From the NCBI GenBank assembly GCA_903873905.1, contig CAIQQJ010000043.1:4426-68425 (forward strand): a stretch of DNA of 64,000 bases, given 5' to 3'. The translations under genes were made by a program, and so were the position numbers. Source of the stretch: an uncultured Flavobacteriales bacterium. Its GTDB lineage: Bacteria; Bacteroidota; Bacteroidia; Palsa-965. Position 1 is the first letter of the stretch. Each line of letters opens with the position of its first letter. Positions 23,673 to 55,153 of this stretch are shown here, piece after piece. A model generated the notes under the pieces. That model did no database searches, was not told the DNA's origin, and saw only the letters and a list, made by a program, of their open reading frames with translations.

Positions 23673-24674
23673 TTACCCCAAACACTGAATTATCATGGCA
23701 TTTGCCTTTGCATCACCAATACTAATTCTCAATGCTTTCTCTTGGCCAAATATTTTCATGTCGCAAATGATGATTCCGTTTCTGAAAAGTTTGTCGTAAA
23801 CCATTTTCTTTTCATCATCCGTTCCGAACCACATGTATATGAAATTGGATTGTGAAGCAACAACATTATATCCAAGTTTATTTAATTCATTGAACAAAAT
23901 AGTTCGCTGTTCAGCATTATCTTTTGCCGATTTTAATATGAAGGCTTGATCATTCAACGCTGCAAGTGCAGCATTCACTGATATTGGACTCAATGAATAC
24001 GGAATTTGACCTCGCGACATGCTTGCGGCTTTTTCCTCATCCATAATCGCAAAGCCAATCCGCAATCCTGCTAATCCATATATTTTCGAAAAGGAATGCA
24101 GAATAACAAGGTTGGGATATTTTTTTTGCAAGGCAATTGAATTCGGAAAAGCAGAATCATTTACATATTCTCCATAGGCTTCATCAATTGCAACAATTAT
24201 ATTCTTGGAAATTTTACCAAGAAGATTTTCCAATTCAGCATGAGAAATTATTGTGCCTGTTGGATTATTTGGATTGGCAATAAAAATCAGTTTTGTTTTT
24301 TCGTTAATTAATGGAAAGATATTTTCAGGATTACATCTAAATTCAGTCAAGGGAGCAAATTGACATTTTCGATTGTGAAAACCAGCTAATTGTCCGTATG
24401 CAATAAAACTTTTTTCAAACGTCAACACTTCTTCTTCAGCACCAACAAATGTCTGAATCAATCCATCAATGATTCGAACTGAACCTGCACCTACAACAAT
24501 GTTTTTTGAATTCACGCCAAAACTCTCAGCCAGCTTGTCTTTTAATACAACAGGATTTACTTCCGGATACAAATGGATATTCTCCAGGTTTTTCTGAACA
24601 GCATCCATTGCAAAAGGAGAACAACCGTAGCAATTCTCATTGGCAGCCAGCCTTATTATTTTTGCTTCACTCAT
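23673..24674 (-). CDS. class II (HisC-like histidinol-phosphate/aromatic) aminotransferase
   Basis: 'RLAANENCYG' and 'HSFSKIYGLAGLRIGF' (PLP lysine box). ATG 24674 overlaps the upstream stop (ATGA). The track ORF extends to 24722. Confidence 0.8.
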   Translation of the reverse strand: MSEAKIIRLAANENCYGCSPFAMDAVQKNLENIHLYPEVNPVVLKDKLAESFGVNSKNIVVGAGSVRIIDGLIQTFVGAEEEVLTFEKSFIAYGQLAGFHNRKCQFAPLTEFRCNPENIFPLINEKTKLIFIANPNNPTGTIISHAELENLLGKISKNIIVAIDEAYGEYVNDSAFPNSIALQKKYPNLVILHSFSKIYGLAGLRIGFAIMDEEKAASMSRGQIPYSLSPISVNAALAALNDQAFILKSAKDNAEQRTILFNELNKLGYNVVASQSNFIYMWFGTDDEKKMVYDKLFRNGIIICDMKIFGQEKALRISIGDAKANAMIIQCLG

Positions 24675-25534
24675 TCGAGAATGCTTTTGCTGATATTGTA
24701 CAATACTTCCTTCCGATACCATGCGGTTGCACGAATATCAGTAATGGGTGATGCGTAAGACAAAACCTTGTCCGCAAATCTTTCCTTTTCTTCCTGAGAA
24801 ATTGTTTTTAATTTTTTTCCAATCAAAAATTCGCAGGCGGATTCTGCAAACCGAATTGTCGGAGCCGATGCTCCAATGGCAATACCTGCCTGAATAATAA
24901 TTCCATTTTTATCCAATTGAACATGATAAGAAAGAGAAACCACCGAACATTCCATTGACCGCCTTGTTCCAATTTTGATAAAACCAGAATGAATGTTAGT
25001 TGTTGTTTTTTTGTTTGCAGGAACAGCAACACCAAACAACACTTCATTTTTTTTGAGCGCTGTTTTTCTAACCCCAATTAAAAAATCATTAATAGGAACC
25101 ATTCTGCTTTTTCCAGAAGTATTCATTAATTCACATTCTGCCTGAAGGGCAACCAAAGCACAAGCCATATCACCTGAAGGAGATGCTGTACATAAATTAC
25201 CTCCCAATGTTGCCACTTGTCTAATCTGTGTGGAGGCAAGGTTAAATGCGGCCTCATGTAGCACATGATATTTATTCTTTATTTCCTCATTCACCACAAT
25301 TTTGTGTGCGGTAAACATAGCCCCGAATCGCAGACCTTTCGCGGATTTTTTTATTCCCGTGAAAAGAGGATCTTTCACAAAAGAAAGATTGATGACTGTC
25401 AAATCCTTTTCCGGTTTCTTTTTTAATTCCATCAACAAATCCGTGCAGCCTGCACCGAAGCGGAAATGATTTTCCTTCCTAATTGCACCAAGCAATTCTG
25501 ACTTTGTTTTAGGATTTACAATATTGAATTCCAT
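24671..25534 (-). CDS. molybdenum hydroxylase (xanthine dehydrogenase/CO dehydrogenase family) FAD-binding subunit
   Basis: 287 aa. 'GAGCTDLLMELK' and 'TLGGNLCTASPSGD' are FAD_binding_5 motifs, followed by a CO_deh_flav_C-like tail. Confidence 0.85.
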   Translation of the reverse strand: MEFNIVNPKTKSELLGAIRKENHFRFGAGCTDLLMELKKKPEKDLTVINLSFVKDPLFTGIKKSAKGLRFGAMFTAHKIVVNEEIKNKYHVLHEAAFNLASTQIRQVATLGGNLCTASPSGDMACALVALQAECELMNTSGKSRMVPINDFLIGVRKTALKKNEVLFGVAVPANKKTTTNIHSGFIKIGTRRSMECSVVSLSYHVQLDKNGIIIQAGIAIGASAPTIRFAESACEFLIGKKLKTISQEEKERFADKVLSYASPITDIRATAWYRKEVLYNISKSILE

Positions 25535-25548
25535 GTACAGAAATGTTA

Positions 25549-26421
25549 TTAAAAAATACTTAAATATCTTTCAGCTCGATCAGACAAAACAGTGACAACA
25601 ATTCCTTCAGGATTATTTTTTTCAATCCACCTTTCAGCAGCAAGAACATTTGCTCCAGAACTGAATCCTACAAAAATTCCATTTTCTTTCACTAACCTTC
25701 TTGCCCTTTCTTTTGCCTCTTCCGTTTTTATCAATACAATATCATCCAAAACATTTAAATCAACGAGAAATTTACTTCCATCACCAATCCCTTGAATACC
25801 ATGAAGACCGTGCTCTCCTCCACTCATCACAGGTGATTCGGCAGGTTCACATGCAACCACTTTCATTTGTGGATAAACATTGATCAATGCTTTTCTCAAA
25901 CCCATTATTGTTCCACCTGTTCCAGTTCCCAACACAATGGCAGAAATTTCTCCAATATTCTTTGTTTGACTTAAAACTTCAATTCCAGTTGTTTTTTCAT
26001 GACACTCAATATTCAAGGCATTATGAAATTGATTGGTATTAAACCACCCATTTTTCTCAGCCAATTCATTACGCAATGCAATTGCACCATCAAAATCGCC
26101 ATCAGCAACTTCAATGATTTCCGCTCCGAACAAACGCATCATTTGTTTCCGCTCTTCACTCATGTTTCGCGGCATAATAATTTTCACATTGTAGCCTCGC
26201 TCTGCTCCAATAAATGAAAAAGCTATTCCAGTATTTCCACTCGTCGCTTCAACAATTGTATCTCCTTTTTTTATGAGATTGTTTTTTTCAGCAGCATTAA
26301 TAATATACGTTGCAATCCTATCCTTAATGCTGCCACTTGGATTATACGTTTCAAATTTTGCATATAGCTTATCGCTGATTTTTAATAGCGGAGTATTGCC
26401 TACTGTGTCGGATGGTCTCAT
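25549..26421 (-). CDS. cysteine synthase-family (CysK/CysM-like) PLP enzyme
   Basis: 290 aa. 'NPSGSIKDRIA' (PLP Lys), 'TSGNTGIA' and 'GTGTGGTIMG'. Its start overlaps the Mo-subunit stop (ATGA at 26418-26421). Confidence 0.85.
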   Translation of the reverse strand: MRPSDTVGNTPLLKISDKLYAKFETYNPSGSIKDRIATYIINAAEKNNLIKKGDTIVEATSGNTGIAFSFIGAERGYNVKIIMPRNMSEERKQMMRLFGAEIIEVADGDFDGAIALRNELAEKNGWFNTNQFHNALNIECHEKTTGIEVLSQTKNIGEISAIVLGTGTGGTIMGLRKALINVYPQMKVVACEPAESPVMSGGEHGLHGIQGIGDGSKFLVDLNVLDDIVLIKTEEAKERARRLVKENGIFVGFSSGANVLAAERWIEKNNPEGIVVTVLSDRAERYLSIF

Positions 26422-28742
26422 AAAGAATGGGAATTAATCTTAGAATTATTTTTTGTGTTTCTTAAGGATATTGCTTTTAAAACTTTTTCGGGTGTAATTG
26501 GCAAATCCAAAAACTCCAAATCAAGTGCATTACATATTGCATTTGCAATGGCAGCTGCTGTTGGAATCAACGGCGCTTCACCAACGCCTTTTGCACCATA
26601 TGGCCCTTCTTTGTCGAATGTTTCAACAGGGGAAAAATGAATGTTTGGAATATCCGAAGCTGTCAACATTTTATAATTGTGAAAATTCGGATTCAGAATT
26701 TTTCCCTCATGCATTAATAATTCTTCGGTCAATGCATAACCAACGCCTTGCAAAATTCCGCCTTCAATTTGTCCATCCAACAAAAGTGGATTCAAAACTC
26801 TTCCCACATCTTGCGCCACATAAACATCCAACACTTTTACATTTCCCGTATAGGTGTCAACTTCCACTTCAATAGCTTGAGAAGCGAATGCATAAGTACC
26901 TGAAACATTTCCCTTGAAATCCTTATCCTGAAATTTACTGGATGGCTCATAAAAATAGTCAGCTATTGCCAGTTCATTCGGTTCAGAAAAATGCATTTCG
27001 CGAACCACTTTATCCAAAGCAATACTATCATTTGATTTCACTGAAATGATTTTGTTATCGGAATATTCAAATTCGGAATCGCCTGACTTAAGAAGTGCAG
27101 ACGCCTTTTTATTCAACTTCTCTTTCAAGATTTTAATTGCACCGAGCAAAGAATTTCCAGCAACAAAACTTGTGCGTGAAGCGTGTACTCCCACATCCCA
27201 TGGTTTTACATCGGTGTCGGTGTTGATGACTTTTATTTTTTTCAATTCAATTCCCAATTCTTCCGAAGCAATCATCGCAAGAACTGTTTCAGAGCCTTGG
27301 CCAATTTCATTGGACCCTGTAATGATTGTACAGTATCCATAAGGATCAATTTTTAAAATTGTACCGCAACCATCCGAACGATAAATTTTCGCGCCGCCTC
27401 CAACGTGCAACATGGAAGCAAGACCTATTCCCTTCTTGAACCTTCCTTCTTTGTTTATCGATTTCTTTTTGTTGTAATGACTTTTTGAAATTACATTTTC
27501 CAAACATTCAACTAATCCACAAGTTTCAAAATGCAATCCTTGCCCAGTAGTTTCACCTTTTCGATTGGCATTCTGCAAACGAATTTCCGCTTTGTCTATT
27601 CCCAACTCATCGGCAAGCAAATCGATTACTCGCTCCAATGCAAAAGTGGCCTGAGGATTTCCATAACCTCTGAAAGATCCTGCAAAAACATTATTTGTAT
27701 AAACGGCCATCGCATCAAACTTGACGGCATTCACTTTATACAAGGAAGAAAACGCTTGCATGATTACGAAGGGAGTTGTTGCTCCCCATGAAGTATACGC
27801 ACCATTGTCTTTCACAATATTAATTTCCCGGAATGTAAAATTCCCAGCCTTATCAACACCAGCCGTCAATTCAATTTCCATTGGCTGTCGAATCGGTGAA
27901 GCGATAAATTCCTCTTCGCGTGTATAGAGAATCTGAACTGGTTTACCGGTCTTAATGGAAAGCAGTGCGCAAATTGGTTCAAATGGATGCATGTCCAACT
28001 TACTACCGAATCCGCCGCCAATAACTGGTTGAATAACACGAATGTCGGATGGATTCATTTTCAATGCATGCGCCATATCGCGTTGATACAGGAATGGAAC
28101 TTGCGTTGAACTATACAGCAATAATTTTTTGTCAATGAGATTGAAACTCGCTGTAATGTTACTTGTAGCCATACAAGCATGTGTCATGCGTGGCAGTGTG
28201 AACTTTCTTGTTACAATGTGCTTGCTTCTCTTTTTTTCTTCTTCTAGATTTCCGTGTTCGTAATGGAATATTTCAGCAGTGTTTTTATTTTCAAATTTTC
28301 CACTGATGAATTTATTTATTTGTGGTGCACTTTTTTTCAATGCCTCTTGCACATCATAAATTCCCTTCCGAACTTTATATTTTACTTTTATTAGCTTCAA
28401 TGCCTGTTGTGCAATCTCTTTTGTATCGGCAGCAACAGCGGCAATTTCATCACGTGTACAATTCGCTTCACCCGTTTTCAAAATTGGATGATCGCGTTTG
28501 TAACCAATATTATTCACATCTACATCTTCAGCTGTAATTACGCAATGAACACCAGCAAGTTTTTTTGCTTCAGAAACATCTATGGATTCAATTATTGCGG
28601 ACGGATGTTCAGTACGCAAAATTGCACCATACAACATATCAGGCATTACAATGTCGTGCCCATATACCGCTTTCCCTGTCGCGCGAATATTCGCATCGTG
28701 CTTGGGAATTGGTTTTCCGATTACTTTAAGTTCCTTTTTCAT
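26418..28742 (-). CDS. molybdenum hydroxylase large (molybdopterin-binding) subunit
   Basis: About 774 aa from MKKELKVIGKP. 'VIGGGFGSKLD' and the C-terminal 'GAKGVGEAPLIP' (catalytic Glu box). The track ORF extends to 28787, into the upstream gene. Confidence 0.9.
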   Translation of the reverse strand: MKKELKVIGKPIPKHDANIRATGKAVYGHDIVMPDMLYGAILRTEHPSAIIESIDVSEAKKLAGVHCVITAEDVDVNNIGYKRDHPILKTGEANCTRDEIAAVAADTKEIAQQALKLIKVKYKVRKGIYDVQEALKKSAPQINKFISGKFENKNTAEIFHYEHGNLEEEKKRSKHIVTRKFTLPRMTHACMATSNITASFNLIDKKLLLYSSTQVPFLYQRDMAHALKMNPSDIRVIQPVIGGGFGSKLDMHPFEPICALLSIKTGKPVQILYTREEEFIASPIRQPMEIELTAGVDKAGNFTFREINIVKDNGAYTSWGATTPFVIMQAFSSLYKVNAVKFDAMAVYTNNVFAGSFRGYGNPQATFALERVIDLLADELGIDKAEIRLQNANRKGETTGQGLHFETCGLVECLENVISKSHYNKKKSINKEGRFKKGIGLASMLHVGGGAKIYRSDGCGTILKIDPYGYCTIITGSNEIGQGSETVLAMIASEELGIELKKIKVINTDTDVKPWDVGVHASRTSFVAGNSLLGAIKILKEKLNKKASALLKSGDSEFEYSDNKIISVKSNDSIALDKVVREMHFSEPNELAIADYFYEPSSKFQDKDFKGNVSGTYAFASQAIEVEVDTYTGNVKVLDVYVAQDVGRVLNPLLLDGQIEGGILQGVGYALTEELLMHEGKILNPNFHNYKMLTASDIPNIHFSPVETFDKEGPYGAKGVGEAPLIPTAAAIANAICNALDLEFLDLPITPEKVLKAISLRNTKNNSKINSHSL

Positions 28743-28743
28743 T

Positions 28744-29292
28744 CTAAAATTCTTCTTTTGCGAATAATTTTTCTGCTGCGTCAACAATTTTCACGTAGCC
28801 GGTGCATCTGCATAAATTTCCCTCCAGAAATTTCTTTATTTCATCTCTTGTTGGAAAGTCATTTCTGATTTCTCCAGGAACATGATGTGAATTTTCAAAA
28901 TGATTCACCATCGCTTTTATTGACATGGCCATTCCTGAAGTACAAAAACCACATTGTACAGCCCCATTATTTACCAATGATTCCTGAACTGGATGAAGCG
29001 ATCCGTCATGATTTGTCAAGCCTTCAATCGTTGTAATATTTTTCCCATTCGCATTCACGGCGAGAAACAAACAGGAATTGACTGGTGCATCATTTACCAA
29101 AACTGTACAAGCGCCACATTCCCCTTCGTGACAACCAGGTTTTGTGCCTTTCAATTCAAACACATCACGAATCAAATCAAGCAAAATCGTGGATGCTTTT
29201 ATTTTGCATGAAACCTGTTTCTCGTTCAAAGTGAAAGAGATTTCATGAAGCACTTCGATTTTTGGTTTGTTTTTTTTCAATTGCTTTTTCAT
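28744..29292 (-). CDS. molybdenum hydroxylase small subunit, 2x[2Fe-2S]
   Basis: 182 aa. 'CHEGECGACTV', 'CGFCTSGM' and 'NLCRCTGY'. Confidence 0.9.
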   Translation of the reverse strand: MKKQLKKNKPKIEVLHEISFTLNEKQVSCKIKASTILLDLIRDVFELKGTKPGCHEGECGACTVLVNDAPVNSCLFLAVNANGKNITTIEGLTNHDGSLHPVQESLVNNGAVQCGFCTSGMAMSIKAMVNHFENSHHVPGEIRNDFPTRDEIKKFLEGNLCRCTGYVKIVDAAEKLFAKEEF

Positions 29293-29300: not shown

Positions 29301-29897
29301 TTATGCTGATTGCTTTTTCAATTCAAATTCCACACCGAGCTTAAAAGCCTTCACTGTTTTTTCCTTATGGTAAGCTGTAACCGTATTGATAATTGCTTCC
29401 TCAATTTTATTTGCTTCAAATGGAAAATCCTTCATTCGCGTTGCCCTACCCAATAAGAAAACATTGAAGAGAACGGCGTCAATTCCTTCTGGGAATTTTT
29501 CGATAAACACAACTTCCTTGCATTGTTCCCCCAAATATTTCGCAAAGGAATTGATATCCGGATATTCTGCCATTTGTGCATTAACAGAATAAGGTTGCAC
29601 ACGATAATTACCAAAAATCACACAACTGTTCTTGTGCAAATAAGAAAGACATCTTTGCGTTTCAAGTGGCTCCAAACCGATTAACAAATCAATTCCGGCT
29701 GTTCCATAAAATCCAGTTGTGTGTTCTCCCAATCCAATTCCGGAAGTCACAACACCACCACGTTGGGATAGTCCATGAATTTCACTCACGCTAACAGGAA
29801 TATTTGAAAGCATTGCAGCTTCTACAATAATATTGCTCAGGTAAACAATTCCTTGTCCACCAACTCCTGCAATCAATATTTTTTTACAAACCAACAT
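29301..29897 (-). CDS. iorB: indolepyruvate:ferredoxin oxidoreductase beta subunit
   Basis: 198 aa. 'ILIAGVGGQGIVYLSNII', a POR gamma-type domain, 2 nt downstream of the iorA-like gene. Confidence 0.8.
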   Translation of the reverse strand: MLVCKKILIAGVGGQGIVYLSNIIVEAAMLSNIPVSVSEIHGLSQRGGVVTSGIGLGEHTTGFYGTAGIDLLIGLEPLETQRCLSYLHKNSCVIFGNYRVQPYSVNAQMAEYPDINSFAKYLGEQCKEVVFIEKFPEGIDAVLFNVFLLGRATRMKDFPFEANKIEEAIINTVTAYHKEKTVKAFKLGVEFELKKQSA

Positions 29898-29899: not shown

Positions 29900-32800
29900 T
29901 TATATTATTTCTTCTGGTTCCAACTCTTCTTCTTCAATTACCTCAAAACGAATTGCATTATTCGGACAAACATCAATGCACAATCCACATAAATTGCATC
30001 GCGACATATCAATTTGAACTTTTCCATTCACTTTCACCATTGCAGGACAACCGAAATTGTCAATGCAATGATTGCACTTCTGACACGACTGAAAAAGATT
30101 ATATCGTTCAATTTCAACTTGAATGTCATCATCAACAATAGCTTTTCTCAAATGAAGCGTTGGTGCAGGATTTGTATTCAAACGCTCCAAGGCCATTTCA
30201 CCTTCATAAGCATATTTATAATTCTCCAATGATTTCCGAACAGCGACAACTGCTTTCTTTCCTGATGCAATGGCACCTATCACACTCATATTGTTTCCTG
30301 AACTGATGTCACCAGCAACAAATACATTTTCGTATCCAGTAAATGAATTTTCACTTTTCACTCTTTGATTTTCATCAATTTGAATTTGTGCAAATAAACT
30401 TGGATCAGTAGTTTGTCCAATAGCAGTGATAATAAAATCACATTTGATATTTTGCAGGAATGTTTTCTTTTCGTGTGAATGAAGAACTACATTCAATTCA
30501 CCGTCTTTTCCAACAGAACAAGTCTCAACAAAACTATCGTGAATGAATTCAATATCCTCTTCGGAGGCATGTTTCACCTCTTCGGCAAAGGCAGGCATTG
30601 TACTTTCTGTTTCAATACAGGAAACAATGATTTTATTCAATACATTCAACTTTTTCGCTGAACGAGCCGTATCAATTGCACTGTTACCACCACCAATAAC
30701 CAAAACCGTGGAACCTGGTTTGATGATTTCCTCCTTGAGATTAAAAGATTTCAGGAAAGAAAGTGCATCTGTTCTTTTTGCTGATGGAATTGTAGAATCA
30801 ATCAAATCAATTGTTTTCGATTTATTCATTCCGATTGAAAGAATGACTGAATCGAATTCTTTTGCTAATTTCTCCAATGAGATTTCTTTTCCAAGTGAGG
30901 TATTGAATTGGAATTTCACTCCCATTTCCTCCAATTGCATGGCTTCGTAATCATATCCCGTTTTATCCATTCGGAAATCCGGAATTGCAAATGTTACCAT
31001 TCCACCAGCCTTATTCTCTTTTTCAAAAATGGTCACCTCATATCCGTTTTGAACCAAATCGTAAGCAGCACTCAAACCTGCAGGACCAGCACCGACAACA
31101 GCAATTGTTTTATTTTTCTTCACAGCATTTTTCACCCTTTTCATAGGAATAGAAAAATCGCGGAAATTCTGATCGATTTCAGCAACCAAATGCTTCAATT
31201 TCTTGATTGGCACAACACTATTCTCATTTGAGAAAAGTTCACATGGTCGATGACAAATTGCGCCACAAGTTCTTGCAAACAACATTTTATCGCGAACAAT
31301 CTCCACTGCAGATTTGTAATCACCTTCTAAAATGGAATTGAAAAAACCATGATTGCAAATATTTGCCGGACAAAGCTGTTCATCACCAGGAATGGAAATT
31401 TCCGCAATGAGTTTGGCTTTTGCTCTTGATAAATTATTTTTTGGAGCGTAACAACGTGAACAGGCCAAAGAAACATCTTCATGGTTAGCGCAGGAATTAC
31501 AAAGATTCGGATCAACAACGATTTGCATTTTCTTGTCGATCTTGTCCTTAAAATCAGGAAGGAAAATGCAAGGTGCTTTTGCTATTACCACAGAAACGCC
31601 AGTGTACTCCATTGCACCGTTCAGTTTCTTGAAACTTTCACGAATATCAAACGGATTGATTACTTCTAACTTCTCAATGCCCAATCCTTTCAAAAGGGAA
31701 TAAATGTCTATTTCATGATATTTTGGAAGACGTGAAGCACCTGGATGAGCTTGATGTCCTGTCATTCCTGTTGTGCGGTTGTCAAATATTACAACCAGTA
31801 TATTTGCGCGTGTATAAACGGCGTTCACCAAAGCGGAAAGTCCAGAATGGAAAAAGGTTCCATCTCCAACCAAAGCGACAACTTTTTTACCTTTTTCGGA
31901 AGAATTAAAAGATTCATACAATCCTTGAGCCATGGAAATACTCATGCCCATGTGATTGATGGTATCCAGCATTTTTAAAGGAGGCAATGCGCCCAAACCA
32001 AAGCAACCGATATCACCACACAAAATCAATTCACTCTGTTCACGAGGAATCGCAAGTTTCAGCAAATAAAATGTTGCGCGGTGTGGACAACCTGCACATA
32101 ATGCCGGAGGACGAGGTGGAAGATTCTGAAGATACTTTTCAAAATTGTCAAGTGGAATATTTTCATTCTTGTTGAATGGAACTTCCAAATATTCTTCCAA
32201 CACTTTTTTCAATAAGTCAATGGAAAATTCACCTGTTGAAAGCAAACCTGAAAAACCTTTTCCCAAAATGGTTAAATTCAAATTATTCTTTTGGGCAATT
32301 ATCCTAATGCAATTCTCAAGTAATGGATCAAGCTCTTCAAGCACCAATACTTTCTCAAATCCTTTTTTCAAAAATGCCAAAACTTCACTCTCCGGAAATG
32401 GGTGAATCATCCCAAGGTCAAGCACACAAACTTTCTCAGTGAAATCATTTTGATGAAGCAGCTCCGTAATATAGGAAGTTGCAACACCACTACTGATGAT
32501 GCCAAGTTTTGTTTTGTTACTGTTTAAAACAACTTTGGTATTCTGATTCAATAAGGCAAGCACACTTTCAGTTTTCAATTTATCAAGCAGGCGTGTGTGA
32601 GCGGCAGCAGTGCGTGCAGGAATATTGATGTGTTCCGGCAAACGATCAAAGTTTGCAATGCGATTTTCGTTGTTGATATTTCCATACGTCACAATTCCAC
32701 GAGTATGAGAAACGCGCGTGGTAGTACGAACGATGACTGGTAATTTTATTTTTCCAGAAAGTACAAACGCTTCCTTGATCATTTCAAATGCATCGGCAGG

Positions 32801-43267: not shown

Positions 43268-43347
43268 AATTTAGAATTAAGAATTATTTTTTTTAGTCGA
43301 ATTAATAATCGAAGTCAATAACCGAAGAAGTTCATCTATTTGATTCT

Positions 43348-48353: not shown

Positions 48354-49208
48354 TTAATCATCGTCATGCCCACCATGTTCACCACTATGTTCATTTGAGT
48401 TTCCTCCACCCTCTGATTCATGTTCGCTTCCACTTTTATGACAAGAAATGCAATTGTCAAAATTGTAAATCCCTTCTTCATTATGCTTTTCACTCAAATT
48501 GCTTTGTGAATGTTCGTGACATCCATAACAGGTGTATGATTTATAATTGCTATCCGTGTGACATGTATTGCATGTTGCGTTGTGATTTCCACTCAGCTGA
48601 AAATAGGCTGAATGATTAAATGACGATGGTGTCCATTTGTTTGTATTATGACATTGCTTGCAATTATTTTCAAACTGACTATGGGAAGTTCCCGCTGGCT
48701 TTTGATGACACGAAAGGCAATTCGAAAATGAATCCTGTAACATTTCATGATTAAACTTTGCAGGCATCCATGCATTTGTATTATGGCAACTTCCACAATC
48801 CTTTGATAATTTATCGTGAATAATTGTCGATGAAGTATGACAACTAGAGCAATTTTCTCTCACACTATTGATCAGAAGTTCATGAGAAAAACTTTTGACA
48901 CTTGATTTAGGATTTGCGCCAATATGATCAGTGTGACATGAAGTGCAACTTTGTTCCGCCAAATGTTGATGGAATAAAATATTCTTCATTTTAGCAGCAC
49001 TCGTGTCTTTACCGATTTCAGATAATTTATGGCAAGTGATACATTTTTCTGAAGCAAGTCCCTTGAAGAAAGTATGGCAAGAACCACAATCATCTTTAAT
49101 TTTATTGTGTCCCTCCAACAGTTCACCCGGATTTACCATAGCCGCAGGAAACTTGAACATGGCAAATGTGCAAAGCAAAATAATTAAAAGGATGACAGAC
49201 TTTTTCAT
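48354..49208 (-). CDS. decaheme c-type cytochrome (secreted/periplasmic), His-rich acidic tail
   Basis: 284 aa. N-terminal signal/anchor and ten CxxCH motifs counted in the translation: CGSCH, CITCH, CTSCH, CSSCH, CGSCH, CLSCH, CKQCH, CNTCH, CYGCH, CISCH. Recurring 'CxxCHxTxxWxPxxFNH' units. Confidence 0.9.
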   Translation of the reverse strand: MKKSVILLIILLCTFAMFKFPAAMVNPGELLEGHNKIKDDCGSCHTFFKGLASEKCITCHKLSEIGKDTSAAKMKNILFHQHLAEQSCTSCHTDHIGANPKSSVKSFSHELLINSVRENCSSCHTSSTIIHDKLSKDCGSCHNTNAWMPAKFNHEMLQDSFSNCLSCHQKPAGTSHSQFENNCKQCHNTNKWTPSSFNHSAYFQLSGNHNATCNTCHTDSNYKSYTCYGCHEHSQSNLSEKHNEEGIYNFDNCISCHKSGSEHESEGGGNSNEHSGEHGGHDDD

Positions 49209-49777
49209 TTAGCAAACATTATTATTGAAAGAATATGCAGGATCGTCAAAAATCCAAAGACAACTGTAATTGGAAGATGAACAACTCTCCACTTCTTCAT
49301 TAGGTCAACCATTATTGAATCGCGATAAAGTTTTTCTTGAATTTCTTTTTCGCTGAGTCCTGCTTTCACCAAATCATTTTTCTTCTCTGTAAGTGCAGCC
49401 TTTGCAATGTTCAAAAGGACTTTCCCCACAAAACCACTTGCAACAGTTATGATCAGCATAAATATTGCAAGCCAAGGCAAAATGGCATTGAAGTGAATTC
49501 CTGCGTGAACCATTACCATCAAGGCGCCAATCCAGGAAAGAATTTCATGAACTTCTAGAAGAGCTTTCGGTGGAGCAATGTTTATTATTTTTCGTTTTTG
49601 TAAGGAATAGAGGAATGAAAGTAGAATCAGAACTGTTCCTGCTGTTCCCAAATAACGCCCTAATAAAACCAACTTAAAGTGGTGAAGAATGTAATCGAAT
49701 AAGATGGTAGCAATAAATAGCAAAGCATACCATACAATATATGGTAACATATCTTTGAAAAAGATTGACTTTATCAT
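49205..49777 (-). CDS. small polytopic membrane protein, possible b-type heme/quinone-interacting partner of the cytochrome
   Basis: 190 aa, about 5 predicted TM helices with intramembrane His residues ('ILHHF', 'VMVHAGIHF', 'VVHLPITVVFGFLTILHIL'). Its stop overlaps the cytochrome start (ATGA at 49205-49208). Confidence 0.55.
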   Translation of the reverse strand: MIKSIFFKDMLPYIVWYALLFIATILFDYILHHFKLVLLGRYLGTAGTVLILLSFLYSLQKRKIINIAPPKALLEVHEILSWIGALMVMVHAGIHFNAILPWLAIFMLIITVASGFVGKVLLNIAKAALTEKKNDLVKAGLSEKEIQEKLYRDSIMVDLMKKWRVVHLPITVVFGFLTILHILSIIMFAK

Positions 49778-49783: not shown

Positions 49784-50185
49784 TTATTCAGGTATTACTG
49801 CTGTTGCTTCAATTTCTATCACTGCAGGATGATCCAGTAAATCCACAACGAAAATCATGCTCATGCAGGGATAGTGATTTCCGATGATTTCTTTCCAGAC
49901 TTTCCCAATTTCTCTTCGTGTTGCCAAATATTGATCACGGTCTTTACAGAAACATGTCATTTTGCAAATGTCTTCTGGTTTTCCACCAGCCTTTTTCACA
50001 ATTGCAACAATGTTTTTCAAGGCTTGTTCGAATTGCGGAACTAATTTATCACTGGCAAATTTTTCTTCTGGCGACCAACCCACTTGTCCTGCCAAAAAAA
50101 GTGTTCTTCCTTTCGCTGCAAGAATTCCATTCGAATATCCTTTTGGAACTGGCCAACCTTCTGGTAAAATAATTTCGTGATTCAT
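49784..50185 (-). CDS. RidA/YjgF/UK114-family enamine/imine deaminase
   Basis: 133 aa. 'GYSNGILAAKGRTLFLAGQVG...' and the C-terminal 'IEIEATAV' are typical of the family. Confidence 0.8.
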   Translation of the reverse strand: MNHEIILPEGWPVPKGYSNGILAAKGRTLFLAGQVGWSPEEKFASDKLVPQFEQALKNIVAIVKKAGGKPEDICKMTCFCKDRDQYLATRREIGKVWKEIIGNHYPCMSMIFVVDLLDHPAVIEIEATAVIPE

Positions 50186-50188
50186 TTT

Positions 50189-51862
50189 TTATTTTTTTAC
50201 TCCGTAAATTTTTTCAGCAACTTTTTTAGAAACCACTTCATTCTTCACATCCTCCAAAACCTTTTTCTTGTCACGTTTTTTTGGATTGCCATAACCACCA
50301 CCGCCACTTGCAATTTGCAAATACAAGGTGTTGTCTGGAATTCCCTGAATCATATCCTTGCTCATTGGAATTAACTTCTTCCCATTCTTGTATTTCAACT
50401 CAATTTTGTTCAGCACACTTCCTTTTCCTCCGAACAAACCATAATTCGTTTCCACATCTCCATCTCCGAAAACAACCATCGTAGTATCGTCGCCTCGCAA
50501 CATGATTTGTGTAACGGTTCCCAATCCGCCGCGCCACTCTCCTGCTCCACCAGAATCGCACAAATATTCATGCTGTACAATTCGATGCGGAGTTTGTTGC
50601 TCATACATTTCATAATCCTGATCCAACACGCCACCCGATGCATCAATCATTCCGATGTGATCATAACCATCATCGTTTTTCATTGCGCCACTTCCACCTT
50701 TCAATCCGAGAAAACAGATATCCACATATTTTTTTCCTGTGCGCGGATGATTGCCTGTGAAAAGTGAACACAACAAATGATTCCATCCTGCAGTGATTCT
50801 ATCCGGAACAGCAGGACCGAGTGCCTTGAAAATCGCATCAGCCACTTGGGGACAAAGATGATTTCCAAAAGTTGTGGCTGCAGGATAAGATGCATTCAGA
50901 ATTGTTCCTTCAGGTACAATGTATTTTAATGGTTTGATCATTCCTTCATTGTGTGGAATGTTGGGATTGATCATTTGCAAAAAAGTAAGGGTAATGGCTG
51001 AACAGGTTGAAGTGTAAATTCCATTTACAAACCCTTTTGTCTGTGGAGATGATTTTGAAAAATCAAAAGTGATGTCCTCGTTTCTAACAGTAATTTCCGT
51101 ACGAATTGGGAATTTGCTTCCCTTGTGTTTTCCATCGTAATAAACAGTGCTTCCTCCTTTGTAAACACCATTTGGAATTGCTTTGATTTCCGCACGCATC
51201 ATTTTTTCCGTTGCATCGAACAATGCAATTTTGTGTGCTTCGAAAACTTCTAATCCATATTTTTCAACAAATGCACTCAATCTTCTTTCTCCAAGTGTGC
51301 ATGCACCAATTTGCGCCTTGATATCTTCCTGCACCATTTGCAATCGAATGTTTGCAAAAATTAAATTCCAAACATCCTTTCTGAATTTTCCTTTTTCATA
51401 CAACTTTACTGCAGGAATACGAAGCGCTTCTTGCCAAACTTCGGTTGCGTTTGGATTGTAACCACCTTGCACTGCACCACCAATATCTGCTTGATGTCCT
51501 TTCGCCGCTGACCAACCCACCAATTTATTTTGGTGAAAAATCGGTTTGAAAATAGCAACGTCATTATTCTGATTTCCCATTGAGAAAACATCATTATGAA
51601 TAATTACATCACCTTCGTGAATGTCGCTGCCATATTGCTCCAGAATCACTTTGCAAACGGGTCCGAGTGAAAAAGAAAGGATGGGAAGATTTTCTGTTTG
51701 TTCCAACATTTGCCCTTTCGCATCATACAATCCCGTCACGAAATCTTTCGCTTCGCAGAGAATTGGTGAGCGCGTAGTTTTTGTCAATGAGATGCTCATC
51801 TCATCCGTAATGGATTTGAAAGCACGCTGGAAAATGGAAACTAATATTTTATCAATGTTCAT
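50189..51862 (-). CDS. hydantoinase B / oxoprolinase-family subunit
   Basis: 557 aa. The N-terminal 'FQRAFKSITDEM' region and 'CDSGGAGEWRGGLG' are HyuB-type. Confidence 0.9.
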   Translation of the reverse strand: MNIDKILVSIFQRAFKSITDEMSISLTKTTRSPILCEAKDFVTGLYDAKGQMLEQTENLPILSFSLGPVCKVILEQYGSDIHEGDVIIHNDVFSMGNQNNDVAIFKPIFHQNKLVGWSAAKGHQADIGGAVQGGYNPNATEVWQEALRIPAVKLYEKGKFRKDVWNLIFANIRLQMVQEDIKAQIGACTLGERRLSAFVEKYGLEVFEAHKIALFDATEKMMRAEIKAIPNGVYKGGSTVYYDGKHKGSKFPIRTEITVRNEDITFDFSKSSPQTKGFVNGIYTSTCSAITLTFLQMINPNIPHNEGMIKPLKYIVPEGTILNASYPAATTFGNHLCPQVADAIFKALGPAVPDRITAGWNHLLCSLFTGNHPRTGKKYVDICFLGLKGGSGAMKNDDGYDHIGMIDASGGVLDQDYEMYEQQTPHRIVQHEYLCDSGGAGEWRGGLGTVTQIMLRGDDTTMVVFGDGDVETNYGLFGGKGSVLNKIELKYKNGKKLIPMSKDMIQGIPDNTLYLQIASGGGGYGNPKKRDKKKVLEDVKNEVVSKKVAEKIYGVKK

Positions 51863-53981
51863 TGACGGTAACTTTTTTATTTTTCAACTGATAACCTTTC
51901 GGGAATTTCTCTTTTTCATAAACAATGAATGAACCGAAATCATCCACCACACAATCATAACTTTCCGTGAGCAAAATGGACGTTGTGATTTTCTCGATGA
52001 CACAAGGTCCTTGAATCGTTGATCCGAAAATTGGCATATCGCCATCATAAATCGGAACCTTTTTCATTTTGTTCAATTCAGGAATATAGATTTCACGGTG
52101 TTCCTTGATTGCTTTTTCAGCAGGGATATTTTTTGAATTTCCGGATAGGAATTTTGGCTTTTCTGTTTTGCCAACCACACGCAAACGCACATTGATGATT
52201 TCCATTTCCGTTCCTTCTTCCTTGAGTGAATAACCGAATTGGCGATTGTGTTCTTTGTGAAATGCTTCGAAAATATTTTCAAGATTAAATTTCATCACAT
52301 CATCCCAATTCGCTTCCATTTGCACTTCGTGATATTGACCGAGATAACGCATATCTAAAATCGGGTAAAAAGAGATTCGATCGGCGGCAACGCCTTCTTC
52401 CTTCACCAATGCATTCAAGCCATCATCTTTCATTTCATTGAATAGCGAAATGAATTTTTTTCTGTCGATATTATTGAAAGATGTGAAATAGGAACGAATG
52501 TAATCGTGTTTCAAATCGCCCAACAACATTCCTGCTGCACAAAATATCGAGGAAACATTTGGAACAAGGAACATTGGAATTTCCAACTCCTTGCAGATTT
52601 CAGAAGAGTGAATCGACCCAGCACCTCCGGCAACAATGAATAAAAATTCTCTTGGATCATAACCACGCTCAACAGAAATTTCGCGAACACCTTGCGCCAT
52701 ATTGCTATTGATGATGCGATACATTCCTGCTGCAGTTTCCAAAACAGACAATCCCAATTTCGAAGCGAGTTCATCCTTGATTGATTTTTCCGCCTTTGCT
52801 TTATTGAGTTTTAATTTTCCGCCCGCAAAAAAATTCGGATTGAGATATCCCAAAATCAAATCAGCATCTGTACATGCTGGAATTGTTCCACCACGATCGT
52901 AACACACAGGACCGGGCATTGCTCCTGCACTTTGCGGACCCATTTGCAAAAGTCCACCGCTGTTAAGCCAACCGATACTTCCACCACCAGCACCAATGGT
53001 AATGATATCGAGTGATGGAAGTGCGATGCGATAACGATTGATATTTCCCTCTGTACTTGTCACGCATTGATTGTCAATTACGATTGCAGCATCGAAACTT
53101 GTTCCGCCCATGTCAACGGTGATGCAATTTTTATAACCAAGCAATTGTGAATAGAATGCTCCTGCAGTTGGAGCAGCAGCAGGTCCGGATAGAACAGTAA
53201 CCGCTGGATTTTTTTTCACTTGATCAGGAACAACAACTCCTCCATTCGACTGCATAATCAGCAGCGTTCCTTTGTAATTAATGCTTTCTAATTTCTGAGT
53301 TAGATTGTCCAAATATTTTGCAACGATTGGACCAACAAATGCGCTGACGACAGTTGTGCTTACTCTTTCGTAAAAACGAATAGAAGGAAGAACTTCGAAT
53401 GAAGCCGTGACAAAAATTCCTTTCAGATTTTTTCTCAGAAATTTTATTGCTTTTTTTTCATGATTTGCATTTTTGTATGAATTCATGAAACAAACCGCAA
53501 CAGATTCCACATTTTCATCTTTGATTTTTTTGATGATAGGAAGAAGTTCTTTCTCATCGAATTTCTTTAACACTTTTCCTTCGGAATCCATTCGTTCATC
53601 AACGGTGAAACGCAAATAACGTGGTGCAAGCGGAGTAACATTTCTGTAATGATTGTTGAATTGTTCCTCTCGAATTCCCCTTCTCATTTCGAGCGCATCA
53701 CGAAAACCTTTGGTGGTGATGAGTGCTGTTTTTGCTCCGCGCAAAGTGAGCAATGCATTTGTGGAAACCGTTGTTCCATGAACAATTGTATCAATGTTCG
53801 ATACGAATTTCTCGAATGACAAACCGCTCATTTCAGCAACTTCCCGAATGCCATTGATGAATCCAATGGACGAATCCTGTGGAGTGGAAAGTGTTTTGTG
53901 TACAATGGTTTTGCCTTCCGAAGAAACGCAAATCAAATCGGTAAAGGTTCCACCAATATCAATTCCTACGTTGAATCTCAT
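51852..53981 (-). CDS. hydantoinase A / oxoprolinase-family subunit (ATP-binding, ASKHA fold)
   Basis: 709 aa. 'RFNVGIDIGGTFTDL' and 'ITVDMGGTSFD' are actin-like ATPase motifs. Overlaps the B subunit gene by 11 nt. Confidence 0.9.
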   Translation of the reverse strand: MRFNVGIDIGGTFTDLICVSSEGKTIVHKTLSTPQDSSIGFINGIREVAEMSGLSFEKFVSNIDTIVHGTTVSTNALLTLRGAKTALITTKGFRDALEMRRGIREEQFNNHYRNVTPLAPRYLRFTVDERMDSEGKVLKKFDEKELLPIIKKIKDENVESVAVCFMNSYKNANHEKKAIKFLRKNLKGIFVTASFEVLPSIRFYERVSTTVVSAFVGPIVAKYLDNLTQKLESINYKGTLLIMQSNGGVVVPDQVKKNPAVTVLSGPAAAPTAGAFYSQLLGYKNCITVDMGGTSFDAAIVIDNQCVTSTEGNINRYRIALPSLDIITIGAGGGSIGWLNSGGLLQMGPQSAGAMPGPVCYDRGGTIPACTDADLILGYLNPNFFAGGKLKLNKAKAEKSIKDELASKLGLSVLETAAGMYRIINSNMAQGVREISVERGYDPREFLFIVAGGAGSIHSSEICKELEIPMFLVPNVSSIFCAAGMLLGDLKHDYIRSYFTSFNNIDRKKFISLFNEMKDDGLNALVKEEGVAADRISFYPILDMRYLGQYHEVQMEANWDDVMKFNLENIFEAFHKEHNRQFGYSLKEEGTEMEIINVRLRVVGKTEKPKFLSGNSKNIPAEKAIKEHREIYIPELNKMKKVPIYDGDMPIFGSTIQGPCVIEKITTSILLTESYDCVVDDFGSFIVYEKEKFPKGYQLKNKKVTVNEH

Positions 53982-53983
53982 TC

Positions 53984-55153
53984 TTACGATATTTGTTTTT
54001 CTTTAATTTTCCATCCCCCTGCACTTACTGCTTGCGTCAACGAAGTTGGTATTTTGAAACTGGAATGTTCCTTGCAGAATTCACTCACCACTTTCAAAGC
54101 TTTCTCCATTCCAAAACCATTCATCATGGAAAATGGCGGATTGATGACCAATGAATTCTTACATGCAAAATCCAAATCATCGATGTTGACAATTGCAAGA
54201 TCCATGATGTAGGATGCAAGTGAGAAATACGCACCCAAAAACTCTTGTGCGATTTTTTCTTTTCTTTCAGCTGGAATATTTATTTCTTCTCCTTTGCTTG
54301 CGGTGTGCCAAGGCAAATTACTGTCGACAGCATTTTTTAAAGTCAATGGAGATTTGAACCATGGCATCAAATGTTTTCCCATTTCATCCAAACCATGTGC
54401 AGTAATTGGATTCCCTCCGGTAAGATTCAAAGCTGTGAACGGCCCAACGCCAAGACCAAGCGTTTCCATTGCCACTTTATCAATTTCCTTTTCATTGCCA
54501 AGATTTTTTTCGAGACAAAGAATAGCAGTTTGACAAAGACCTTCAAAAATTGGATCGACAGCATAACCGTATGAACTTTTTACAACAATTGGTTTTTTAC
54601 CAATGGATTTGTAAAAATTCAAAAGATTTTCCACCAGATTTTTATCTGTATCAGCAGAAGGAACAAGTTCAACAACTGGATTTCTATCAGCAGGAAAAAA
54701 ATAATGTGCCACCAAACATCTTGATTTGTCCTTGATGCTTTTGAAAATAACTTCAGGTTGCATGTGTGAAGAATTCGAAAGGAAAATTGTGTTCTCGCCA
54801 CAAATTGCTTCTACCTGTTTGAAGATTTTATCTTTTATTGGTTCGCTTTCCGTTGCTGCTTCCAATACAATTTCAGAATTCGAAATGCTGGAATAATCGC
54901 TGGTGTAGCTAATGCAGTTTTTCAATGCTGCAGCAAGCTCCGCACTAAAGGATCCTGTTTCAAGACCTTTCGCAATTTTTTTCTCAATTTTTTTCTGCGC
55001 ATTCTGTAATGCTGTTTCAGCAATGTCAACTAAAACAAGTTGAGCATTCTTTTCAGCAAAAGCCTTTGCGAAATGGAACAGAATATCTGGGCCAATTTGT
55101 CCTGCGCCAATTACAGCGATTTTGGAAATGGCAATTTTTTCTATTTGTCTCAT
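53984..55153 (-). CDS. 3-hydroxyacyl-CoA dehydrogenase family protein; first gene of the cluster
   Basis: 389 aa. 'KIAVIGAGQIGPDI' Rossmann start and 'LVAHYFFPADRNPVVE' (3HCDH_N-type). Confidence 0.8.
   Translation of the reverse strand: MRQIEKIAISKIAVIGAGQIGPDILFHFAKAFAEKNAQLVLVDIAETALQNAQKKIEKKIAKGLETGSFSAELAAALKNCISYTSDYSSISNSEIVLEAATESEPIKDKIFKQVEAICGENTIFLSNSSHMQPEVIFKSIKDKSRCLVAHYFFPADRNPVVELVPSADTDKNLVENLLNFYKSIGKKPIVVKSSYGYAVDPIFEGLCQTAILCLEKNLGNEKEIDKVAMETLGLGVGPFTALNLTGGNPITAHGLDEMGKHLMPWFKSPLTLKNAVDSNLPWHTASKGEEINIPAERKEKIAQEFLGAYFSLASYIMDLAIVNIDDLDFACKNSLVINPPFSMMNGFGMEKALKVVSEFCKEHSSFKIPTSLTQAVSAGGWKIKEKQIS

Follow-up and report, generated by a model that had tools for sequence, protein, structure and literature searches.

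In Aromatoleum and Azoarcus, indole-3-acetate is degraded anaerobically to 2-aminobenzoyl-CoA by a characterised pathway encoded by the iaa genes (PMC8360864). IaaB of this pathway is an indoleacetate-CoA ligase, IaaGH is a B12-dependent mutase, and IaaL is a family III phenylsuccinyl-CoA transferase with phenylsuccinate and succinate as reported substrates (PMC8360864). IaaF is a decarboxylating benzylmalonyl-CoA dehydrogenase of a subclass whose active-site motif is GGG rather than YEG, and its physiological electron acceptor is stated as unknown (PMC8360864). In the literature, 2-oxoindoleacetyl-CoA gamma-lactamases are predicted as a separate subcluster of hydantoinases. The archaeon Ferroglobus placidus also has an iaaF orthologue in an iaa operon, which includes a dedicated paralogue of the electron-transferring flavoprotein, ETF (PMC8360864). 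Here, we analyzed a 64-kb stretch of DNA from an uncultured Flavobacteriales bacterium (GCA_903873905.1, contig CAIQQJ010000043.1, positions 4,426 to 68,425; the window), which contains a cluster of 25 genes (g1 to g25 in transcription order, Table 1). The core of this cluster matches the anaerobic indoleacetate pathway, and we consider it likely that the cluster encodes anaerobic degradation of tryptophan/indoleacetyl-CoA to 2-aminobenzoyl-CoA, built on the iaa pathway.

Compared with the iaa cluster of Aromatoleum aromaticum EbN1/Azoarcus evansii (Ebenau-Jehle et al. 2012; Schuhle et al. 2016, 2021), the window has putative orthologues of ten genes and keeps the orders HyuA-HyuB-...-IaaF and B12 subunit-mutase, but lacks the IaaB ligase, the IaaM binding protein and the GntR-type regulator. 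Entry would instead be by a GltD-fused indolepyruvate oxidoreductase and an aminotransferase, and an SCP2-type thiolase with a PhlA-like/DUF35 scaffold appears to replace the classical thiolase. Further differences are an additional Rid-family gene, the lack of a hydratase domain and the presence of eight accessory genes. The host belongs to the Bacteroidota, whereas Aromatoleum and Azoarcus are Betaproteobacteria; unlike the operon of F. placidus, the window cluster has no ETF. The original prediction for this DNA had described the cluster as having no assignable substrate and no characterised pathway, and had named a published pathway with the same gene set as the finding that would remove the novelty. 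For the core, the existence of the Aromatoleum/Azoarcus iaa pathway refutes both statements (PMC8360864).

Reference loci were obtained by searching the published iaaF forward primer (PMC8360864) in species-representative genomes. The primer matched 29 stretches, one of which was useful, L030 of Aromatoleum buckelii, with the order thiolase, CoA ligase, HyuA, HyuB and iaaF; the other 28 were unrelated acyl-CoA dehydrogenases with the common N-terminus MDFDLTD. A protein search with the L030 HyuB yielded a 94%-identical HyuB and thereby contig L032, a Rhodocyclales iaa cluster with the order regulator, thiolase, CoA ligase, HyuA, HyuB, acyl-CoA dehydrogenase, B12 small subunit, mutase, molybdenum-hydroxylase FAD, FeS and Mo subunits, CoA-transferase and binding protein. 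The two ends of the L032 dehydrogenase gene fit both published iaaF primers with three mismatches each. The position names IaaA, IaaC, IaaE, IaaI, IaaJ and IaaK are putative and follow the L032 gene order.

Judged by identity (33-65%) and the same local order, ten window proteins are orthologues of the Rhodocyclales iaa proteins. The cluster bears five defining features of the pathway, namely the IaaF GGG motif, the IaaGH mutase, IaaL, the HyuA/HyuB lactamase and a three-subunit molybdenum hydroxylase. The dehydrogenase g7 showed 59% identity over 375 amino acids (aa) to that of L032, compared with at most 38% for unrelated acyl-CoA dehydrogenases with the same N-terminus, which served as controls. 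Near its C-terminus (...RFTLIGGGTSEILK), the motif LIGGGTSEIL is shared by g7, its Bacteroidota homologues and L032 IaaF, and five control acyl-CoA dehydrogenases had YEG or GEG at this position. The mutase subunits g16 and g17 showed 48% identity and 64% identity (over 529 aa), respectively, to their L032 counterparts. The best solved structures for g17 were HcmA (482 bits) and human methylmalonyl-CoA mutase (MCM; 426 bits), and the Tyr and the carboxylate-binding Arg of the latter enzyme are retained, in keeping with a substrate that bears a free carboxylate. The glycine-rich and LCS signatures common to g17 and the iaa mutase, RMIA(G/A)GGGGGLT and TMALCSYDEAYT, are missing from HcmA and from human MCM, which has HCQTSGWSLT and SLHTNSFDEA there.

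The lactamase subunits were also closest to those of the iaa clusters. g2 showed 50% identity over 692 aa to the HyuA of L032/L030, and g3 showed 65% identity over 552 aa (774 bits) to the iaa-cluster HyuB, far above its best solved structure, 6yra_B of caprolactamase (324 bits). Among relatives of g2/g3 that are both characterised and solved, the closest is the Pseudomonas jessenii caprolactamase CapAB (6yra), which has two subunits and hydrolyses lactams at the expense of ATP. Against the NCBIfam caprolactamase models, g2 (for which the alpha model is the closest) and g3 scored 670 and 407 bits, respectively, with a cut-off of 1000. These pairwise identities and bit scores place g2/g3 in the predicted 2-oxoindoleacetyl-CoA gamma-lactamase subcluster. 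The sole family III CoA-transferase gene of the cluster, g18, showed 45% identity over 403 aa to that of L032, and its best NCBIfam model, succinate-glutarate CoA-transferase, gave only 170 bits. The hydroxylase subunits g21, g22 and g24 showed 44, 50 (over 775 aa) and 33% identity, respectively, to those of L032; the closest NCBIfam models of g22, 4-hydroxybenzoyl-CoA reductase alpha (558 bits) and XdhA (543 bits), were both under their cut-offs. The ligase, binding protein, regulator and classical thiolase of L032 had no homologue in tblastn searches of the whole 64-kb window (E<=1e-3), and Pfam detected no AMP-binding domain among the cluster proteins. Acetone or 2-hydroxyisobutyryl-CoA metabolism, a valine/isobutyryl-CoA mutase, a lactam-to-glutarate route, nicotinate fermentation and gut purine degradation were early ideas that were given up when the iaa orthology emerged.

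Since the substrates are assigned from sequence and the identities to the Rhodocyclales proteins are 33-65% rather than near-identity, the compound degraded might be another heteroaromatic 2-oxoacid or arylacetyl-CoA, such as a substituted indole, or imidazolepyruvate from histidine, with which the membership of g25 in the histidinol-phosphate aminotransferase family would agree. We regard this as highly improbable, because g19 fits the indolepyruvate oxidoreductase model far better than others, enzymes acting on aryl-succinyl/benzyl-malonyl thioesters share the IaaF motif and mutase signatures, and an opened imidazole ring would not yield an arylsuccinyl-CoA.

In the proposed scheme for tryptophan, the enzymes are identified by family membership and orthology, and from these we infer the substrates. 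Tryptophan would be converted to indole-3-pyruvate by g25, and indolepyruvate to indoleacetyl-CoA and CO2 by g19/g20. The electrons of this second step would probably pass through the fused GltD-type FAD/Fe-S module of g19 to NAD(P)+ and not to free ferredoxin, and the step would sidestep the ATP-consuming indoleacetate-CoA ligase IaaB of Aromatoleum. Hydroxylation of the indole C2 by g21/g22/g24 would then give 2-oxoindoleacetyl-CoA, a gamma-lactam, which g2/g3 would open at the expense of ATP to (2-aminophenyl)succinyl-CoA. After a shift of CoA to the other carboxyl group by g18, the rearrangement by g16/g17 would produce (2-aminobenzyl)malonyl-CoA, and g7 would oxidise and decarboxylate this to 2-aminocinnamoyl-CoA. 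Following hydration, for which the window encodes no enzyme, g1 would oxidise 3-hydroxy-3-(2-aminophenyl)propionyl-CoA, and g11 on the scaffold g10 would cleave 2-aminobenzoylacetyl-CoA to 2-aminobenzoyl-CoA and acetyl-CoA. Hydroxylation to a lactam, ATP-dependent ring opening, B12-dependent rearrangement and beta-oxidation had all been anticipated in the original prediction and agree with iaa, but its order of steps does not hold, as transamination and oxidative decarboxylation most likely come first and not after ring opening.

The entry module was assigned as follows. In g19 (1131 aa), residues 17-616 matched the NCBIfam IOR_alpha model with 590.7 bits (cut-off 650.9), far better than other oxidoreductase models. 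Residues 635-1117 matched PRK12771 with 270 bits, with Cys motifs at 1071 and 1100; thus, after the thiamine-pyrophosphate (TPP) domain, a GltD + 2x[4Fe-4S] unit stands in place of the usual C-terminal ferredoxin domain. g20 gave 125-144 bits with the NCBIfam IOR beta models (cut-offs 206-238). For g25, the second-best solved structure was 4r2n, a putative phenylalanine aminotransferase. The PRK12771-type unit, a GltD-like FAD/NAD(P) domain with two [4Fe-4S] motifs, is fused in-frame both to the IorA part of g19 and to the PorC-like gamma part of g13, which suggests a recurrent way to replace the delta/ferredoxin domain. PadEFGHI is a five-subunit phenylglyoxylate:NAD+ oxidoreductase, an NAD(P)-linked 2-oxoacid oxidoreductase. 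Like the window enzymes as proposed, it combines the oxidation of a 2-oxoacid with a flavin/NAD(P) module and can thus do without free ferredoxin; g13-g15 scored 85-217 bits with PadE, PadG and PadI, far under the cut-offs. The window enzymes differ in that the predicted NAD(P) module, a domain of the PRK12771/GltD type, forms in-frame fusions with IorA in g19 and with the gamma subunit in g13.

As the window holds no IaaB homologue, the oxidoreductase g19/g20 is the only encoded route to indoleacetyl-CoA, and the simplest reading is that indoleacetyl-CoA is formed directly from tryptophan via indolepyruvate. Such a route, from tryptophan through an aminotransferase and an indolepyruvate oxidoreductase into an iaa-type pathway with 2-aminobenzoyl-CoA as its end product, was reportedly proposed for F. 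placidus by Aklujkar and co-workers in 2014. Alternatively, free indole-3-acetate (auxin) would be degraded, with g18 as the activating enzyme and the oxidoreductase and aminotransferase either unrelated or working reductively to form tryptophan. The characterised pathway does begin with free indoleacetate, IaaL does carry out intermolecular CoA transfer with succinyl-CoA, and methanogens are believed to use an indolepyruvate oxidoreductase and a ligase for the assimilation of indoleacetate, through reductive carboxylation. Nevertheless, the window has neither an uptake/binding protein nor a ligase, and the reported IaaL substrates are phenylsuccinate and succinate, not indoleacetate. Five relatives keep the IorA fusion, IorB and aminotransferase in one module with the hydroxylase, a linkage unexpected for unrelated neighbours, and the most distant relative, L037, still joins CoA-transferase, IorA fusion and IorB. 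In a second, more distant lineage (L057), an indolepyruvate oxidoreductase, there in the form of an IorA-IorB fusion without GltD, occurs at the same position, which supports a functional link between oxidoreductase and iaa cluster and is an independent instance of it. On this evidence, degradation of free indoleacetate seems fairly unlikely, and tryptophan is retained as the probable substrate. An extra aminotransferase of L002 proved unrelated to the aminotransferase beside the Rhodocyclales cluster.

The beta-oxidation set of the cluster consists of a dehydrogenase with 35% identity to L032 and a non-orthologous thiolase. g1 matched over 359 aa the dehydrogenase half of a 552-aa dehydrogenase-hydratase adjoining the Rhodocyclales iaa cluster. 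In most relatives the first gene encodes a fusion of about 670 aa, of 3-hydroxyacyl-CoA dehydrogenase and enoyl-CoA hydratase; g1 has 389 aa and no hydratase domain, and this short form was also found in L118. The L032 thiolase did not match g11, which we propose as a non-orthologous replacement of the thiolase at the IaaA position. Its solved-structure matches were the archaeal acetoacetyl-CoA thiolase 6esq_A, BbsB (7pxp_C) and PhlC. g11 thus matches the thiolase subunits of PhlACB (5m3k, 9skh), the archaeal thiolase-HMGCS-DUF35 assembly (6esq) and BbsAB (7pxp). The best solved structures for g10 were PhlA (9skh_A/5m3k_A) in its N-terminal, PhlA/HMGCS-like part and the DUF35 protein 6esq_E and BbsA (7pxp_A), its C-terminal part resembling DUF35/BbsA/PhlB. 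In g10, the HMGCS-like and DUF35 parts form one chain and Ser occupies the position of the HMGCS catalytic Cys (FINSSRGGT); PhlA likewise lacks Cys, with SGKSGT at the same aligned position. The NCBIfam HMGCS score of g10 was 91 bits (cut-off 244), and its identity in the four relatives compared was 57-80%. In PhlACB, BbsAB and the archaeal assemblies the thiolase is the catalytic subunit, and by analogy g10 would be a non-catalytic scaffold for g11. The proposed substrate, 2-aminobenzoylacetyl-CoA, differs from those of the Phl, archaeal and Bbs assemblies.

The original prediction had called for a search of gene neighbourhoods, and this revealed the core in Bacteroidota contigs as well as dozens of contigs from metagenomes. 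Homologues of the IorA fusion formed at least 120 full-length clusters at 53% identity or more, and the named ones were nearly all Bacteroidota metagenome-assembled genomes. We inspected six neighbourhoods (among L001, L002 and L034-L037), whose IorA fusion identities ranged over 85, 82, 74, 63, 55 and 53%, and the CoA-transferase gene preceded the IorA fusion in all six. Five of the six (55-85%) had, in this order, the CoA-transferase, IorA fusion, IorB, FeS, Mo and FAD subunits and aminotransferase, the counterpart of g25 being the last gene of the module in L001, L002, L034, L035 and L036. In L037 (53%), the CoA-transferase, IorA fusion and IorB were together with unrelated genes interspersed, and an Fe-S subunit gene lay further downstream. 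Upstream, the closer neighbourhoods contained HyuB, in some cases preceded by HyuA, then Rid, acyl-CoA dehydrogenase, HMGCS-like/DUF35, thiolase, B12 subunit and mutase. The core proteins were highly similar in relatives (mutase 89-95%, thiolase g11 83-94% and HyuB 89-94% identity), and dozens of metagenome contigs carried HyuA, HyuB, IaaF, thiolase, B12 subunit, mutase and CoA-transferase, some with Rid after HyuB. Because the core order recurs in diverged relatives, the adjacency is selected and not incidental.

A metagenome scan with HyuB gave 80 loci, onto which all window proteins were mapped by tblastn; 54 of them hold HyuB and IaaF. Three broad cluster types were observed: window-like, one with a classical thiolase and an IorA-IorB fusion, and a soil type with a ligase, like the proteobacterial cluster. 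In L057, genes for UbiD, UbiX, UPF0261, a PAC-like protein and a PaaK-like CoA ligase lie directly upstream of the dehydrogenase-hydratase gene (9-4766), which may point to an associated (de)carboxylation, possibly of the aminobenzoate that is produced. In L036, a 74%-identical relative, a 1465-aa BcrAD_BadFG/DUF2229 activase-like gene lies between CoA-transferase and IorA (5481-9878), and a DUF7793 gene between IorA and IorB.

The cluster had been regarded as one supercluster of 25 genes. About 17 form the conserved core, and eight are accessory and come and go among close relatives; the lineage-variable genes are g5/g6, g8/g9, g12, g13-g15 and g23, and we treat the accessory genes as lineage-specific additions of unproven role. 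The accessory oxidoreductases recur at fixed junctions. Oxidoreductase 1 (g8/g9) occupies the same IaaF|HMGCS-like junction in L044 (g8 72%, g9 74% identity), and oxidoreductase 2 follows the thiolase in L046/L047 (g13 70-73%; g14, in L046, 78%). In L118, the place between thiolase and B12 subunit is taken by an unrelated oxidoreductase of four subunits, and the close relatives L001 and L034 have neither accessory oxidoreductase. That oxidoreductases of different types repeatedly occupy the thiolase|B12 junction may point to a functional connection. In NCBIfam, g13 matched PRK12771 (502 bits), PorC (142 bits) and PorD (59 bits) and has two CxxCxxCxxxCP motifs; g14 matched PorA_Arch (340 bits) and PadG (217 bits), all under cut-offs; and g15 matched VorB-beta (344 bits), PorB (296 bits) and PadI (217 bits).

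Three different 2-oxoacid oxidoreductases in one block, different oxidoreductases at one junction in different relatives, a divergent methionine-gamma-lyase-like gene upstream and a CysK-like gene inside would be expected of a general amino-acid oxidation island, in which the iaa-like genes are one component among many. This alternative, already raised in the original prediction, leaves the iaa-specific enzymes unexplained: the mutase, decarboxylating dehydrogenase, lactamase and hydroxylase take no part in the oxidation of branched-chain amino acids, methionine or phenylalanine/tyrosine. Moreover, 17 of the 25 genes belong to the conserved core, ten of them iaa orthologues with substrate-specific signatures, and close relatives keep the core without the extra oxidoreductases. 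We therefore judge an amino-acid island quite improbable for the cluster as a whole, although this reading may apply to the two accessory oxidoreductases.

Of the remaining accessory genes, g5 and g12 had no family match in Pfam or NCBIfam, including a lenient Pfam search up to E=5. Six His residues of g5 (H32, H77, H91, H95, H167 and H181) were invariant among four homologues. Its model was all-helical (pLDDT 74, pTM 0.38) and had no significant fold match in the PDB. In the loci examined, g5 was always paired with a cytochrome gene, and it is possibly a haem- or metal-binding partner of g6. The g5-g6 pair occurs at the same Rid|IaaF junction in L118 with 70% and 60% identity, in none of the 54 metagenome loci holding HyuB and IaaF, and as a cassette of the same type in unrelated contexts on three other contigs; this membrane-protein/decahaem cassette seems to move separately from the iaa genes. 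JGI metagenome 3300050139 contains both L034, the closest relative, without the cassette, and L119, with a g5-g6 cassette beside a P-type ATPase. g5/g6 lie immediately upstream of iaaF in two diverged genomes, and the cassette beside iaaF is a concrete but weak lead on IaaF re-oxidation. In an extended form of our proposal, iaa would have been rebuilt as a self-contained tryptophan-oxidising unit without ligase or free ferredoxin, with the GltD fusions delivering electrons to NAD(P) and g5/g6 re-oxidising IaaF; this we consider improbable.

A copy of g12 at the same position was found only in L034 (70% identity), and a single-sequence AlphaFold model of g12 was unusable (pLDDT 30). An 84%-identical copy of g23 is present in L001, and the gene is absent from L002, L034, L035 and L036. 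A g4-type gene follows HyuB in 23 of the 54 loci. In g4, the RidA motif PAR is changed to PCM, with Met at the position of the catalytic Arg (YPCMS versus FPARS in the HI0719 alignment); this Arg is Arg105 in the numbering of Salmonella RidA. The TIGR00004 score was 54 bits (cut-off 106).

Several points weigh against the degradation of tryptophan as proposed. In the literature consulted, IaaB, IaaL and IaaF are the only enzymes reported as characterised, and the mutase is named with no description of its characterisation (PMC8360864); for Aromatoleum, too, the reactions of hydroxylase and lactamase are predicted ones. g19/g20 score under the NCBIfam equivalog cut-offs, and the presumed substrates of oxidoreductase and aminotransferase follow from family and context. 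No enoyl-CoA hydratase was found anywhere in the 64-kb window, so that one beta-oxidation step is unaccounted for, and ring-reducing enzymes for 2-aminobenzoyl-CoA are not in the window. Neither a transporter nor a regulator was found in the cluster, the scheme assigns no role to eight of the 25 genes, and every Bacteroidota example is an uncultured assembly.

Full-text searches retrieved no paper on Bacteroidota iaa-type clusters, on an IorA-GltD fusion in such a context or on this gene combination, and in the searchable literature descriptions of the iaa pathway were found only for Betaproteobacteria, sulfate reducers and one archaeon. The cluster is thus viewed as a member of the iaa family in Bacteroidota with a tryptophan entry, its core pathway already known and its combination new to the literature searched. 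An apparent orphan supercluster thereby becomes a testable prediction, namely that many uncultured Bacteroidota of lakes, sediments and sludge degrade tryptophan/indoleacetyl-CoA anaerobically to anthraniloyl-CoA. With the oxidoreductase replacing the ligase, entry into the pathway may be less costly by one ATP-dependent activation, and NAD(P) coupling of 2-oxoacid oxidoreductases could be studied with the in-frame GltD fusions as a natural model. The hydroxylase and lactamase, which catalyse poorly understood steps of the published pathway, have highly conserved, expressible homologues here.

Table 1. Genes of the cluster in transcription order, with putative functions, and flanking features of the window
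Feature	Position	Strand	Basis or remark
g1, 3-hydroxyacyl-CoA dehydrogenase, short form	53984..55153	-	Pfam 3HCDH_N/3HCDH
g2, HyuA-type lactamase subunit (IaaC position)	51852..53981	-	Pfam Hydant_A_N/Hydantoinase_A/Hydant_A_C
g3, HyuB-type lactamase subunit (IaaE position)	50189..51862	-	Pfam Hydantoinase_B
g4, Rid/YjgF-family protein without RidA catalytic Arg	49784..50185	-	Pfam Ribonuc_L-PSP
g5, accessory helical membrane protein	49205..49777	-	no family match
g6, accessory secreted decahaem c-type cytochrome	48354..49208	-	Pfam Cytochrom_CIII/c3_2/C7; exactly 10 CXXCH
g7, IaaF-type decarboxylating (2-amino)benzylmalonyl-CoA dehydrogenase	47197..48327	-	L032 identity, GGG motif
g8, accessory 2-oxoacid:acceptor oxidoreductase 1 alpha (KorA-like)	46053..47186	-	Pfam POR_N/PFOR_II; NCBIfam OAFO_sf 244 bits
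g9, accessory oxidoreductase 1 beta-gamma fusion	44716..46029	-	Pfam TPP_enzyme_C + POR
g10, PhlA/HMGCS-like domain fused to DUF35 (Zn-ribbon/OB)	43348..44712	-	Pfam OB_ChsH2_C, weak ACP_syn_III
g11, SCP2/archaeal-type thiolase	42083..43267	-	Pfam Thiolase_N/Thiolase_C_1; NYCASG + HDCF motifs
g12, accessory secreted protein, N-terminal signal peptide	41101..42060	-	no family match
g13, accessory oxidoreductase 2, gamma/GltD-like FAD-NAD(P)/delta 2x[4Fe-4S] fusion	38718..40976	-	Pfam POR + Fer4_20 + Pyr_redox_2 + Fer4
g14, accessory oxidoreductase 2 alpha (PorA/VorA-like)	37512..38705	-	Pfam POR_N/PFOR_II
g15, accessory oxidoreductase 2 beta	36563..37453	-	Pfam TPP_enzyme_C
g16, B12-binding small subunit, acyl-CoA mutase (IaaG)	36167..36550	-	Pfam B12-binding
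g17, large subunit, (2-aminophenyl)succinyl-CoA/(2-aminobenzyl)malonyl-CoA mutase (IaaH)	34506..36143	-	Pfam MM_CoA_mutase
g18, family III CoA-transferase, IaaL orthologue (phenylsuccinyl-CoA transferase type)	33298..34503	-	Pfam CoA_transf_3
g19, indolepyruvate oxidoreductase alpha + GltD-like FAD/NAD(P) + C-terminal 2x[4Fe-4S]	29900..33295	-	NCBIfam, Pfam
g20, indolepyruvate oxidoreductase beta	29301..29897	-	Pfam POR
g21, [2Fe-2S] subunit, molybdenum hydroxylase	28744..29292	-	Pfam Fer2_2/Fer2
g22, molybdopterin subunit, hydroxylase	26418..28742	-	Pfam Ald_Xan_dh_C/MoCoBD_1/2
g23, accessory CysK/CysM-like PLP (pyridoxal-phosphate) enzyme between hydroxylase genes	25549..26421	-	Pfam PALP; NCBIfam cysK 302 bits, cut-off 351
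g24, FAD subunit, molybdenum hydroxylase	24671..25534	-	Pfam FAD_binding_5/CO_deh_flav_C
g25, HisC-family aminotransferase	23673..24674	-	Pfam Aminotran_1_2; NCBIfam hisC 303 bits
tRNA-Val, anticodons TAC and GAC	23522..23599 and 56745..56820	- and +	inverted, bracket cluster + divergent PLP-enzyme gene
Cystathionine-gamma-synthase/methionine-gamma-lyase-family PLP enzyme	55316..56707	+	PRK07049 543 bits, above cut-off

An open reading frame (ORF) scan of the window confirmed 25 consecutive, co-directional ORFs on the minus strand (23673-55153), as had been described. Internal ATG starts were picked to fit homologue lengths for g25 (24674), g22 (28742), g8 (47180) and g9 (46026). The intergenic distances from g1 to g25 were 2, -11, 3, 6, -4, 26, 16, 26, 3, 80, 22, 124, 12, 58, 12, 23, 2, 2, 2, 8, 1, -4, 14 and -4 nt. 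Three gaps were thus larger than 50 nt, with 80 nt (43268-43347), 124 nt (40977-41100) and 58 nt (37454-37511), and all other genes were spaced by -11 to 26 nt. This reproduced the three large gaps of the original prediction, its 11-nt overlap (51852-51862) and its three ATGA overlaps. Pfam and NCBIfam bore out every family it had named, including the decaheme cytochrome with its ten motifs, but the labels 'RidA' and 'HMGCS-like' were too specific, as the catalytic Arg and Cys are missing. Pfam analysis of the cluster proteins agreed with it that a regulator, ETF, free ferredoxin and inner-membrane transporter are absent from the cluster. Promoter and terminator scans within the cluster gave little or no enrichment over shuffles; a possible copy of TAnnTTTG, which we take to be a Bacteroidota-type promoter element, was seen upstream of g1 by eye only.

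The downstream flank has a tRNA-Val and a Mur-ligase gene, and the upstream flank a second tRNA-Val and the divergent cystathionine-gamma-synthase/methionine-gamma-lyase-family gene. The flanking tRNA-Val pair is 74% complementary across 77 nt and was all that a repeat search found; no integrase or direct repeats were seen. The G+C content was even, at 0.37-0.40, over the cluster and the sequence before it, and dropped to 0.32-0.35 past about 56 kb. Type IX secretion/gliding genes, for PorV, a PorU-like C25 peptidase (1298 aa), PorP/SprF and a GldJ-like FGE-sulfatase-domain protein, are located at 4365-12403, and these, together with the named homologues of the IorA fusion, indicate a Bacteroidota host. 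At 6-10 kb from the cluster, we observed a second, conventional acyl-CoA dehydrogenase gene (14007-15182, minus strand) and a gene for a Glu/Leu/Phe/Val-family amino-acid dehydrogenase (16999-18219, plus strand), which could regenerate the amino acceptor for the aminotransferase g25. Two sulfur-amino-acid enzymes, the PRK07049-type enzyme and the CysK-like g23, are encoded near the molybdenum hydroxylase; a tie between them, such as cofactor sulfuration, is pure speculation. A gene at 60685-61821 (minus strand) encodes collagen triple-helix repeats with a BclA C-terminal domain, which seems odd in a Bacteroidota genome.

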